Source: Eledone cirrhosa (Eukaryota). From it: DNA of 64,000 nucleotides. Of this stretch, positions 19,551-34,968 are shown piece after piece. Position 1 is the first letter of the stretch; each line of letters begins with the position of its first letter. The notes under the pieces are model-generated. The model searched no databases. It was not told the origin of the DNA and saw only the letters and a program-made list of their open reading frames with translations. The position numbers were made by a program, and so were the translations under genes. The stretch is taken from the NCBI GenBank assembly GCA_964016885.1, contig OZ024741.1, positions 84,940,001 to 85,004,000 of the forward strand, read 5' to 3'.

Positions 19551-19945
19551 AGAAAAGAAATAAGATTTCGCTTCAAGCATAGCTTTGTACAAAAATGTAT
19601 TTAAATTTCGTATTTCTAAAGAAACACGGTTTTAGGAAGCCGTAGCTATGCAAACACCGGGGGCCTCTGGTGGTGTCCAACAGAAGCAAGGGGGACAACC
19701 GTCTATGCATTTCAGGCTTGACTGGCCTTCTTCAGGATGGTCCCTCCCACCGGTTGCTACTGCTGGACTTGAAAACAGTCGAGAATATATAGTTTTCTCG
19801 TCTGTGTAAATGAGGTTATTAATCTCATTTGCATATGAAGTTGTCTCGACTTATAATAGAAAAGAAATAAGATTTCGCTTCAAGCATAGCTTTATGCAAA
19901 AATGTATAGAAATTTCGTATTTCTTTGGTAAACATTTTAGGAAAA
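19551..19945 (-). mobile_element. Retrozyme-like element, about 1.3 units of 307 bp
   Basis: Direct repeat 19551-19637 / 19858-19945; contains HHR and ATTTGCAT at 19827-19834. Confidence 0.75.
19692..19744 (-). ncRNA. Type I hammerhead ribozyme
   Basis: Minus strand: GGGACCAUC-CUGAAGA-AGGC cagucaa GCCU-GAAA-UGCA-UA-GACGGUUGUCCC; palindromic stem III AUGCAU. Confidence 0.85.
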
Positions 19946-21081
19946 TCTTTGAAAAATGTTCATGAAAATTTTGAGAAAAATTTATCAGAATTGTTTTGAT
20001 GAAAATGATTGAAAAATTGGTAAGAAGATTTTGAAGTAAATGTTTTGAAAAAGGTATTAGGGAAACTATTTCAGAAAATATTAACAAAGATTTTTTAGAA
20101 AGTTTTTGGAAAATATTAGAGAAAGATCTTGGGATAATTCTGATGAAAGATTTGAGAAGTTTTTTTTTGTTAATTTTTTAGTATAATATTAATTAATTTC
20201 GAAAAACATTTTGAAGTAGATTGTTTTGAAATAATTTTGATTTTAAATTTTGGAAAAGAATTTGATGAAAACTTTTGAGGATATTTTGAGAAATATTATT
20301 GAAAATATTTTGATAAACAGTTTTGATAAGATTTTGATGAAAGTGTTTTGGGAAAATTTAGTTAGAATTTGTGAAAAGCTTTCAATGAAATTTTAGATAT
20401 TTTGAAAACATTTTTATGATAAATTTTGCTTAAGTTTTTGGAAAAGAACTTTGATGAAAATTTAGGGAAATTGGCGGCAAAATTTAACTAATATCTCTGA
20501 ATTTTTATTAAATATTTGGTAAAAATTGAAAGAGCTATTTTTTTTAATGTTGGGGTAAATATTTCATATATTTGGAGGAAATGTTATGAAAGTATTATTA
20601 GAAATATACTTGAAAATATTTTGTGGAAACTTTTGTGAAGCATATTTTTACAATATTTTAAATACATTTAGATGAAGATTTGGTAAAAGAAATTGAGCTA
20701 TTTTCAATAAAATTTTTAAGAGTTTTAGAAACATTTGGGAAATCTATAATGTAATTATAAATATATAATGTAATTTTGGGGGATCTTTTGACGATGATGT
20801 TTTTTTTTTATTTTGCGGAAAATTATTGAAGGTTTTGTGTAACAAATTTAGAAATATTTGTTGAAAATTCCTAATGACGTTTTGGGGAACTTTTTTTTTT
20901 AAATTCATCGGAAAATGTAGTATTTCCTATAGAAGAACTTGGCCAACTAAGTAATATATATATATATGAAATTAACTATTCATTCAAGAAACTAGTAGTT
21001 TCATAATCATGGACGACAAAGGCCAGTACTCTACATGATCAGAAATTGTATTTCTGATCGTCTAATAAGGATATATATATA

Positions 21082-21204
21082 TATAGGAAAATATTCAAGA
21101 CCCCGACGAGAGATCAAACCGTTTCGACGGCTATTTCTTTCTGGTCCAGAAATAGCCGTCGAAACGGCTTGAGCTCTGCCGTCGAGGTCTTGAACATTTT
21201 CCTA
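21082..21204. repeat. Imperfect fold-back, arms about 55 bp, loop 9 nt
   Basis: ataggaaaatattcaagacc...cgacggctatttct / agaaatagccgtcg...ggtcttgaacattttcctat. Confidence 0.85.
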
Positions 21205-22763
21205 TTACCCACTCTACTAACCTAAGTATTGAGTACTCTGGTGCGTTATGGTCCATCTGGTTCCTTACCACACTTCCTTCGTTATATATATATATATATT
21301 TATATATATATATATATATATATATATATATATATATATATATATATATATATATATATATATATATATATATATATATAAGTATGTACACGTACATACA
21401 TATATGTATACCGACGCACAGTAGTATGTATATATATATATATATACATACATGCACACATATATATATGCACGTATGGATTCACCGAATATTTATTACA
21501 ATGCTCGGTGTGTTTGTAAACAAACATCCCGTATTAAGCCGTAGTGTCTAGCAACCACCGTTGCTCGTTTGTTCAACACTGACAAAGGAACGCTGTACTA
21601 GTTTCAAGCTTGTTAGCTATCGTCAGCAACGTATACCTTCCTGCCAGATTGTTGAACGTATATACTTACCTTATGCATATTAACGGCTGAGTAGCCCAAT
21701 TTGCATATCGAGTGGGTTAATCGGCCGGGTGCACCGAAAACGATAAACGGAAAAAATGAAACGATATTTCATTTCCCACTCTTAGTACGGCTGTTACTTA
21801 AATATAAGTATGTACACGTACATACATATATGTATACCGACGTACAGTAGTATGTATATATATATATATACATACATGCACACATATATATATGCACGTA
21901 TGGATTCACCGAATATTTATTACAATGCTCGGTGTGTTTGTAAACAAACATCCCGTATTAAGCCGTAGTGTCTAGCAACCACCGTTGCTCGTTTGTTCAA
22001 CACTGACAAAGGAACGCTGTACTAGTTTCAAGCTTGTTAGCTATCGTCAGCAACGTATACCTTCCTGCCAGATTGTTGAACGTATATACTTACCTTATGC
22101 ATATTAACGGCTGAGTAGCCCAATTTGCATATCGAGTGGGTTAATCGGTCGGGTGCACCGAAAACGATAAACGGAAAAAATGAAACGATATTTCATTTCC
22201 CACTCTTAGTACGGCTGTTACTTAAATATAAGTATGTACACGTACATACATATATGTATACCGACGTACAGTAGTATGTATATATATATATATACATACA
22301 TGCACACATATATATATGCACGTATGAATTCACCGAATATTTATTACATGCTCGGTGTGTTTGTAAACAAACATCCCGTATTAAGCCGTAGTGTCTAGCA
22401 TATTACCTTATGCATATTAACGGCTGAGTAGCTAACAAGCTTGAAACTAGTACAGCGTTCCTTTGTCAGTGTTGAACAAACGAGCAACGGTGGTTGCTAG
22501 ACACTACGGCTTAATACGGGATGTTTGTTTACAAACACACCGAGCATTATAATAAATATTCGGTGAATCCATACGTGCATATATATATGTGTGCATGTAT
22601 GTATATATATATATACATACTACTGTACGTCGGTATACATATATGTATGTACGTGTACATACTTATATTTAAGTAACAGCCGTACTAAGAGTGGGAAATG
22701 AAATATCGTTTCATTTTTTCCGTTTATCGTTTTCGGTGCACCCGACCGATTAACCCACTCGAT

Positions 22764-33900: not shown

Positions 33901-34224
33901 TCTCAATCTTGGCGCAAAACAAATTTTTTATCCACATGACCTCTACCGACCAATCAAAATTGTTTTGACCAAGAATTTTTGCTGGAGCCACTTTTTTAAC
34001 ATAAAAACAGGTAGAATTCCCAAAACTAAGCAGATCAGAGCAAACAGCACGGACACTCTATCTCAAAATTATTTTTGAAAAGCATTTAGAAATGCGCAAC
34101 CGGTAAAAACTTAAAATCACAACTGAATACTAACCCATACAATCACTAATACTATTTTATTCCTAATTAAACCATTTTTCAACTGTGAACAATTTGTCAG
34201 CATTTTCTATTCCGTTTACCAATA
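30918..34224 (+). mobile_element. Penelope-like element (Neptune-type), 5'-truncated, with inverted pLTR piece at its 5' end
   Basis: 30955-31050 is the reverse complement of 34127-34224; RT+GIY-YIG ORF; (TA)n on both sides. Confidence 0.9.
31085..33100 (+). CDS. PLE reverse transcriptase plus GIY-YIG endonuclease, uninterrupted frame but N-terminally truncated
   Basis: EADKG, GIPKVHK, LRPII, FDVVNLYSNIP, GTAMG..AP, RYLDD, PFLD, YYKPTD; CDRPNCGIC linker; LIYVLTC...YIGQT..R...E..LN. Confidence 0.93.
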   Translation: MDEFCEHITNFPYQHLHRQKHKPNLNKKEWEELNRLKTDRTITIKEADKGSTVVPMETEFYINLALSTLENETYYEKAEHYNQQKMMRNLKILINQYKERLTNKEFSFITDFTSKSSLFYGIPKVHKSESISKACKEATDIVINVPSPNDLKLRPIIAGPACETHRLSNFIDTLLKPFLKHIKSYIRDDLDMLNHLPNMPLSEQTLLVTFDVVNLYSNIPHNLGIEAIQFWLDNFHNELPQRIKKEFVIEGLKFILENNYFVFNNKPYRQKSGTAMGTKTAPTYANLVMGYLEITLYTKVLNKFGNTLHLHIERNWKRYLDDCFILWHENIEKLKVFHTLINGLNTNINFTMEYSHQQLPFLDILIKIHNKKIETDIYYKPTDSKQYLPFNSCHPRHVKINIPYNLAKRICTIFSNKNICYLRLQELKDRLIGRDYPASLIDNEIQRALKLSTQDLRHPKVNQPKLKALPYNSTHNPLNNEAFDTILQNIPVLKKDHRMNQILRTHDIIKSKRQSKSMKNILTHAKVLPTTTTKPTVKKCDRPNCGICINLIERSEFYFKDGQRFIVKHNFTCASENLIYVLTCSGCREQYIGQTKNSLRQRITVHRSQIKIREYRKIPLSEHIDTCAAQNHPNFRIFPLYKFKDNATHTQRISKESYFINKYGPRLNTSP

Positions 34225-34353
34225 TATATATATATATATATATGTATATATATATATATATATATATATATATATATATATATATATATATATATATATA
34301 TATATATATATATATATATATATATATATATATATATATATATATATTTATAT

Positions 34354-34968
34354 AAGAAAATTTCGCTCTGCATGGCTGAATACAATAAATGTAATCTGAG
34401 TTTTTCGAATATTAATAATAACATTCGATTCGTATGCAATTATGCAAAGAAGCCTCAATTTTATAGCCATGTCAGTAGAATGAACACTTCATTCTTGCTC
34501 TTGTGTTGGCATGTGAACAGAACTGCAGACACTAATGTTTCTGGATATCACCCTTCATCAGTACAGCTCACTGTTCACCTGCCAAACTCTCAGAGCTAGT
34601 GAAAATATATGCTATTTTCAAAAATAAACAGTGACTGATCGGTCTGATTTGCCTGTTAGCATACTGGCTGATCAGTCAGATCTGCATATTAGCAGATCCA
34701 CTGATCAGCAGACTAGCCAGTCAGTTTCCTATATACGAGTGATAAATGGCCGGCTTTGCCAAATTCAAATAAAAAAGAAACTTTTCGCCCTACATGGCTA
34801 AATACAATAAATGTAATCCGAGATTTTCGAATATTAATAATAACATTCGATCCGTTTGCAATTATGCAAACTAGCTTCAATTTTATAGCCATGTCAGTAA
34901 AATTGAGGCTTTCTTGCATAATTGCAAACGAATCGAATGTTATTAATATTCGAAAAACTCAGATTACA
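34354..34968 (-). mobile_element. Retrozyme-like element, 1.3 units of 422 bp plus a 70-bp inverted tail, between (TA)n tracts
   Basis: catggct at 34371 and 34793; 34899-34968 is the reverse complement of 34390-34462; contains an HHR. Confidence 0.8.
34506..34585 (-). ncRNA. Type I hammerhead ribozyme with extended stem I
   Basis: Minus strand: UUGGCAgGUGAACAGugAGCUGUA-CUGAUGA-aGGGUgauAUCCa-GAAA-CA uuag UG-UC-UGCAGUU-CUGUUCACaUGCCAA. Confidence 0.85.

Follow-up and report, generated by a model that had tools for sequence, protein, structure and literature searches.

This analysis concerns a 64,000-nucleotide stretch of the genome of the cephalopod Eledone cirrhosa (GenBank assembly GCA_964016885.1, contig OZ024741.1, positions 84,940,001 to 85,004,000 of the forward strand), hereafter the window, within which coordinates are counted from the first letter. 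A descriptor scan of both strands revealed type I hammerhead ribozymes in four repeat families, interpreted here as retrozymes, with units of 424 bp (array 1), 466 bp (array 2), 307 bp and 422 bp. Upstream of the ribozyme core, and on the same strand, each family carries an octamer motif (with one mismatch in the 422-bp family) followed by a TATA-like box, YATATA. The features are as follows.

19550 to 19943, minus strand: insertion of the 307-bp family, about 1.3 units, with its ribozyme-sense 3′ end at 19550, in a U-rich linker
19704 to 19735, minus strand: type I hammerhead core of the 307-bp family, with an AUA triplet and a palindromic stem III, within a long stem I
19786 to 19834, minus strand: module of the 307-bp family, exact octamer at 19834-19827 and TATATA at 19791-19786 (35-nt gap)
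21381 to 23151, both strands: array 1, about 2.4 units on the minus strand, an inversion at about 22401-22429 and about 1.7 units on the plus strand, with (TA)n on both sides and a 56-nt tail
22764 to 22811, plus strand: module of array 1, exact octamer at 22764-22771 and TATATA at 22806-22811 (34-nt gap); minus-copy octamers at 21699-21706 and 22123-22130
22844 to 22874, plus strand: hammerhead core of array 1, with a GUA triplet and U-U at the base of stem II; minus copies at 21596-21626 and 22020-22050
23176 to 25859, both strands: array 2, about 2 units on the minus strand, an inversion at about 24086-24090 and 3.8 units on the plus strand, with (TA)n on both sides and a tail of about 69 nt
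24961 to 25007, plus strand: module of array 2, exact octamer at 24961-24968 and CATATA at 25002-25007 (33-nt gap); five octamers across the array
25061 to 25091, plus strand: hammerhead core of array 2, with a GUU triplet; six copies across the array
31037 to 33100, plus strand: open frame of an autonomous Penelope-like element (PLE), with reverse transcriptase (RT), CX4CXXC linker and GIY-YIG; inverted copy, tail and (TA)n flanks
34354 to 34968, minus strand: insertion of the 422-bp family, 1.3 units plus an inverted 5′ copy (34890-34968) and a tail of about 37 nt, within (TA)n
34528 to 34561, minus strand: hammerhead core of the 422-bp family, with a GUC triplet and an A-A mismatch at the base of stem II
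34606 to 34687, minus strand: module of the 422-bp family, one-mismatch octamers at 34687-34680 and 34654-34647 in a 33-bp internal duplication, and CATATA at 34611-34606 (35-nt gap from the nearer octamer)

The sequence-only reading of this stretch had placed an octamer at defined distances upstream of the ribozymes, and these distances proved exact: on the ribozyme strand, the CUGANGA core follows the end of ATGCAAAT at 72 nt in array 1, at 92 nt in array 2 and at 91 nt in the 307-bp family, and the two one-mismatch octamers reported for the 422-bp family were confirmed as AGGCAAAT at 85 nt and ATGCAGAT at 118 nt before the core. A short AT palindrome had also been described between octamer and core. 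Indeed, a hairpin lies there in all four families, and what is new is that it centres in each of them on YATATA at 33-35 nt from the octamer. In the order array 1, array 2, 307-bp and 422-bp family, the gap from the end of the octamer to YATATA is 34, 33, 35 and 35 nt, and that from YATATA to the core is 38, 59, 56 and 50 nt. The boxes read TATATA or CATATA, that is, imperfect TATA elements, and the chance of finding YATATA within a 3-nt window is 0.001-0.013 per unit. In relatives of array 1, an 8-nt insert directly after YATATA completes the hairpin that is present in the other families.

This spacing recalls that of octamer-containing RNA polymerase II (Pol II) promoters. Passages of PMC4260249 place the TATA box of immunoglobulin VH promoters at about -30 and their octamer at about -70, and in the VH/Vκ and Nos2 promoters, as treated in parts of PMC4260249 and PMC3891534, the octamer lies approximately 35-40 nt before the TATA box. 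A comparable arrangement is found here at 33-35 nt in four of four families, with an exact octamer in three, and the spacing of the module resembles that of the minimal Nos2 promoter. The gap matches the octamer-plus-TATA Pol II layout of the VH type rather than the layout of small nuclear RNA (snRNA) promoters. The VH/Vκ and Nos2 promoters, however, are tested vertebrate gene promoters, whereas the retrozyme site is a predicted promoter that lies inside a retroelement and doubles as RNA hairpins.

The octamer itself was compared with chance in several ways. Nine of the 11 exact octamers of the window sit in these repeats, which represent three family-level events, and TATGCAAAT is the sole 9-mer common to at least three of the four units. 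The best 9-mer over all four units carries one mismatch in total, against a minimum of two in 40 shuffles, while a collinear 8-mer common to three independently shuffled unit bodies arose in none of 2000 trials. Within 150 nt of the 12 other hammerhead-like motifs of the window, an exact octamer was found in no case and a one-mismatch site in one. We regard the octamer as not special between arrays 1 and 2 alone and, judging from these sequence comparisons, as moderately special across families.

The four families have units of 300-470 bp, a GC content of about 35-41%, one type I hammerhead per unit and a short palindromic stem III; no coding capacity was seen in an open reading frame listing that covered positions 26000-36000. 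Complete hammerhead copies number three in array 1, six in array 2 and one in each of the other two families, so that tandem hammerheads in consecutive units occur in the two arrays, and the 307- and 422-bp insertions, of 1.3 units, hold a single one each. In the descriptor scan and constrained folds, all four cores possess stems I-III, with stem I prolonged into a long bulged helix. The predicted unit RNA is highly self-paired: shuffled sequences fold much less stably (z -6.4 and -10.2 for unit folds), and the circles predicted for all four units lie 4-10 standard deviations below 15 shuffles. Rfam recognises array 2 alone, its six hammerheads scoring as HH9 at 38 bits (E ~3e-6, under the gathering score of 52); narrower scans gave no Rfam hammerhead match for array 1 or the 307- and 422-bp families. 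Rfam microRNA matches were dismissed as artefacts of microsatellites or inverted repeats. Arrays 1 and 2 are very abundant among public sequence data (9054 contigs of run X1), the data being contigs from four runs, in which depth does not equal copy number.

These are the testable features of metazoan retrozymes that lack long terminal repeats (non-LTR retrozymes), and the four repeats possess them at the level of sequence. Passages on the coral, mussel and axolotl elements (Cervera and de la Pena 2020, PMC7229834; Li et al., bioRxiv 10.64898/2026.07.22.740005; PMC4209133) describe the same unit size, GC content, type I hammerhead, non-coding nature and co-occurrence with PLEs, as well as a highly self-paired predicted circle; the axolotl HHR_Amex2 also shares with array 1 the U-U pair at the base of stem II. 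To these the four families add the octamer and YATATA module, a common 3′ junction, and clear inverted 5′ copies and tails. In the passages concerned, neither a promoter element of an invertebrate retrozyme nor a cephalopod example is reported. Circles and cleavage have been demonstrated for the known elements, whereas here they are predicted. The sequence-only reading knew of no such promoter-ribozyme module in cephalopods, and open-access full-text listings indeed held neither a cephalopod retrozyme nor an octamer-TATA module; subscription papers and repeat databases lay outside this scope, and the supplement of PMC7229834 may list molluscan examples.

The families are not equally close to one another. 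Arrays 1 and 2 align over the full unit with 283 of 409 columns identical (69%, z 15.8) and share the same predicted fold, so they are, by sequence, clear homologues. With the core and octamer module removed, the body of the 307-bp family still gives a weak alignment (z 3.8 and 3.1 to arrays 1 and 2) and that of the 422-bp family no clear one (z 1.5-2.2), against -1.5 to 1.5 for unrelated controls; leave-one-out profiles find the 422-bp module at E 3e-4. The 307- and 422-bp families are probably distant kin of the arrays. The shared architecture that had been proposed is therefore present, but it does not amount to four independent confirmations, being mostly that of one lineage: since arrays 1 and 2 are homologous and the other two families probable distant relatives, the octamer module does not represent four independent inventions.

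The insertions themselves carry the marks of PLE copying. In array 1, array 2 and the 422-bp copy, (TA)n runs enclose a partial tandem that is accompanied by an inverted 5′ portion and a tail (of 56, about 69 and about 37 nt, respectively); for the 307-bp family, the insertion is just a partial tandem, with neither inversion nor (TA)n flank. One U-rich linker, located upstream of the octamer, holds the ribozyme-sense 3′ ends of all four insertions and is likely, on this anatomy, to be an internal RT start. Such a common junction is consistent with an RT that starts within the RNA, the tail lying between two start sites. Passages of Craig et al. 2021 list the partial tandem, inverted 5′ copy, tail and (TA)n target as PLE signatures, and for an anole PLE, initiation within the RNA and tails were demonstrated in vitro (relevant parts of PMC11167929). 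PLEs of the Neptune/Nematis-type domain order (Craig et al. 2021; Frangieh et al. 2024, in the parts concerned) share with the four families the partial tandem, inverted 5′-truncated copy, tail, (TA)n, hammerheads and, probably, the internal RT start, with tails usually of 30-40 nt against 37-69 nt here. Unlike PLEs, the four families are non-coding and have long stems I. A Pol III terminator was rejected as the main model of the 3′ junction, because T-runs of 4-6 also occur within every unit and because the arrays need multi-unit templates.

The element at 31037-33100, which has an intact RT and GIY-YIG frame and the same insertion anatomy as the two arrays and the 422-bp copy, is a candidate for the type of mobilising partner. 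Homology to it is limited to a short likeness of the array 1 3′ end (23095-23151) to its inner end (34170-34227), with 15 of 18 aligned positions identical and 2 of 300 shuffles as good; the 3′ ends of the other three families show no likeness beyond chance (169-225 of 300 shuffles as good). We treat the link of array 1 to this PLE as a lead. The inversion point of array 1 (22401-22429) holds a short patch from elsewhere in the unit, bounded by 4-base microhomology, which likely reflects two template switches. A further Penelope-like insertion lies at 58586-62683, with a long inverted copy (59173-60075 versus 60970-61873) and nested partial repeats.

We read the four repeats as non-LTR-type retrozymes, likely of one old superfamily, with a probable internal octamer-TATA Pol II promoter, and likely copied by PLE RT into (TA)n sites; the probability we attach to this reading as a whole is roughly 0.45. 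The retrozyme identity and the PLE copying, both already proposed in the sequence-only reading, are well supported by the insertion anatomy and the non-LTR retrozyme literature, and these parts by themselves we consider very probable. The promoter function of the octamer-TATA module is plausible and specific, and the spacing and motifs make it likely that these mobile RNA circles, of a class usually held to be promoter-less, carry the module as a promoter of their own.

According to this reading, a POU-domain factor would bind the octamer and TBP the YATATA box, and transcription would start approximately 30 nt after YATATA, at predicted sites (near 22836, 25032, 19761 and 34581) that lie within the 5′ arm of stem I. 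Pol II would read through successive tandem units, from which consecutive hammerheads, as predicted from their motifs, would release unit-length RNA, with cleavage probably proceeding as dimers for the three families that have a 2-bp palindromic stem III. A host ligase would close the circle, as suggested by the retrozymes of other animals. PLE RT, primed at a (TA)n nick, may then start in the U-rich linker just upstream of the octamer and roll round the circle, which would account for the partial tandems and for the inverted 5′ copies and tails that accompany them. Since the circle holds the whole unit, each new array would inherit the promoter.

Several observations weigh against this reading. 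The 422-bp family is without an exact octamer, and the base of stem II has the A-A mismatch in its copy, which may be decayed. A profile built from array 1, array 2 and the 422-bp family misses the 307-bp family (E up to 10), and membership in one superfamily is uncertain for the 307-bp family for this reason. In an AT-rich genome, YATATA is weak as a motif; it also forms the loop of an RNA hairpin, and two successive hairpins would fix the spacing without any promoter. A hammerhead-less relative of the 307-bp family at 6364-6670 (plus strand), a partial tandem adjoining a microsatellite, has retained the TATATA hairpin while its octamer has eroded to two mismatches. The 10-nt exact run shared by arrays 1 and 2 is unremarkable, as a longest run of about 13 is expected at 69% identity over 409 columns (hand calculation). 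In X1, 15 of about 248 positions of array 1 show variation of 10% or more, and eight quiet positions would then arise 61% of the time; within-family variation is thus too low to give much power to show constraint on the octamer. Bases beside the octamer vary at 47-99% in the public-run contigs, and among the variant rows listed there is one octamer variant in array 1 and none in array 2. The array 1 variant, A to T at position 6, occurs at 0.5% in X1, 11% in X5 and 65% in X4 (one contig), and it would mend a hairpin mismatch, which fits selection at the RNA level.

Such selection is the basis of the alternative that survives best, although we consider it unlikely: promoter-less retrozymes transcribed by read-through, in which the octamer and AT palindrome are kept as RNA, either as adjacent hairpins or as a site for the PLE protein or a host RNA-binding protein beside the RT start. 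Both elements do lie within predicted hairpins in four of four units, the module starts 22-37 nt past the common 3′ junction in three families, and a variant that repairs the hairpin exists. Moreover, a 2020 review holds, in the passage concerned, that metazoan retrozymes seem to be without promoters and to rely on read-through (PMC7761336). The octamer forms the 5′ arm of its hairpin, however, and this arm is constant, while the partner arm, a degenerate inverted copy, drifts from family to family and mispairs at varying positions. In the consensus fold of arrays 1 and 2, by contrast, 18 of the 86 pairs have changed on both sides in a compensatory way, and this difference favours a site read as sequence over a pure stem. 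A site buried in a stem would also be a poor target for recognition as single-stranded RNA, and the fixed letters match a known DNA-binding consensus.

Neutral descent combined with chance appears more doubtful. Here the octamer would be a relic in arrays 1 and 2, a coincidence in the 307-bp family and a set of near-matches only in the 422-bp family. The conservation between arrays 1 and 2 is within expectation, and they have twenty 8-mers in common, one of which a shuffled 307-bp body carries at the matching offset in 2.2% of 5000 trials, a post hoc chance of 0.02. The window, the only one analysed, holds 130 sites with at most one octamer mismatch, and its total of exact octamers is not clearly above chance, with 4 of 100 shuffles reaching 11. 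Such an account would nevertheless require that YATATA recur at this gap in another two families, with a chance of 0.001-0.003 for each, though these barely align elsewhere.

Least probable of all is an snRNA-type promoter, with the octamer as distal element and a lineage-specific proximal sequence element (PSE) elsewhere in the unit, as for newt satellite 2, the internal promoter of which (Coats, Zhang and Epstein, 1994) reportedly includes an octamer. The sequence-only reading had given the repeats an snRNA-like promoter of their own. That the promoter is internal is plausible; that it is of the snRNA type is not supported, given the absence of a human-type PSE and of a 3′ box, and the 33-35-nt gap, which leaves no space for a PSE ahead of the TATA box. 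Newt satellite 2, whose tandem units likewise bear hammerheads and contain a Pol II promoter, is a precedent as cited in part of PMC2220036; its promoter is snRNA-type with a PSE core, whereas the four families combine an octamer near a TATA-like box with no PSE detectable by the human consensus. In the scheme given in part of PMC5493778, snRNA promoters consist of a distal element and an essential PSE. With the human consensus of that source, from which an invertebrate PSE, including that of the host, could depart, the best matches carry 3-4 mismatches and are equalled by 153-200 of 200 shuffles in all units. No 3′ box match with at most one mismatch was found on the sense strand of the four units, and apart from the octamer block, no 12-15-mer common to the units clearly beats shuffles; YATATA at 33-35 nt is the one conserved partner of the octamer. 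The T-runs oppose a Pol III version, and a search for tRNA-type elements found none. The premise that the octamer is the distal element of snRNA promoters is also not universal outside vertebrates: sea-urchin U6 is described, in the passage available, with an E-box instead, while an octamer is predicted at -253 to -246 of the flatworm U6 promoter (part of PMC5460494).

A scan of metagenome contigs for an octamer with a hammerhead core returned at least 113 loci, of which 23 of 113 among the matches listed passed a strict hammerhead test and are real hammerheads of the PLE type; adding seven hand-picked weaker loci gives 30, in 11 groups, again among the matches listed. In two scans of viral sequences, 0 of 145 passed the strict test, and viral contigs scanned as a control without demanding the octamer gave no match. 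Hammerheads not selected for an octamer are frequent in the same metagenome contigs (seven matches, belonging to three families, over 26.8 kb of flanking sequence), and for none of them does an octamer lie within 130 nt. YATATA at 32-36 nt occurs in 0 of the 30 loci among the matches listed, and none of them scores against profiles of the window module. The scan neither supports nor extends the finding, because the octamer was preselected and yields no base rate, the unselected neighbours are without it, and the YATATA spacing is absent from all 30. In the largest group, the octamer seems to be part of an inverted copy of the 3′ terminus of the element, and in a singleton (L168) it is a change within an inverted copy. 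Metagenome contigs also contain a family of small hairpin elements (L149, L161, L207, L210, L211, L222, L241, L246-L248, L253 and L256), the arms of which enclose a PLE-type hammerhead; they start at the octamer, and their spacing of 63-91 nt tracks arm length.

The window holds further repeats. A fifth, dispersed type I hammerhead family lies at 43612-43764 (plus), 46093-46227 (minus) and 55062-55219 (minus), with long stems I and II, ends at (TA)n and no octamer upstream. At 46856-48828, a tandem array of approximately 525 bp units with a GA-rich body and a (TA)n end carries a CUGACGA box on the minus strand, with no GAAA half nearby. A repeat with a minimal PLE-type hammerhead, a probable pseudo-LTR, is found at 45120-45415, 62852-63330 and 63674-64000 (cores at 45194, 63060 and 63908), downstream of a GIY-YIG-like fragment. 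Finally, a dispersed repeat resembling short interspersed nuclear elements is present in six copies (3005-3185, 4477-4651, 8316-8504, 35881-36070, 40513-40599 and 54468-54600).

Animal retrozymes are strongly transcribed. Exceptions to the promoter-less view are cited, in part of PMC2220036, for the newt satellite (an snRNA-type promoter) and the schistosome satellite (a Pol III promoter), and the plant retrozyme NbRZ1 has a mapped promoter (part of PMC12029980). The octamer-TATA module, with its predicted start, would be a third solution beside those of newt and schistosome. The common 3′ junction provides a natural map of where PLE RT may start on a non-autonomous RNA. Should the promoter not be real, the repeats would still be a well-formed new retrozyme lineage; should it be real, sites for POU factors would be carried across the genome by a repeat of high copy number. 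It is possible, though we offer this more tentatively than the reading above, that this superfamily packs a full life cycle into a circle of 300-470 nt, with a POU-octamer/TATA promoter that doubles as two RNA hairpins, a hammerhead downstream and a fixed PLE RT start upstream. The abundant arrays would then be autonomous units that spread POU-responsive promoters and make tissue-regulated circular RNAs.

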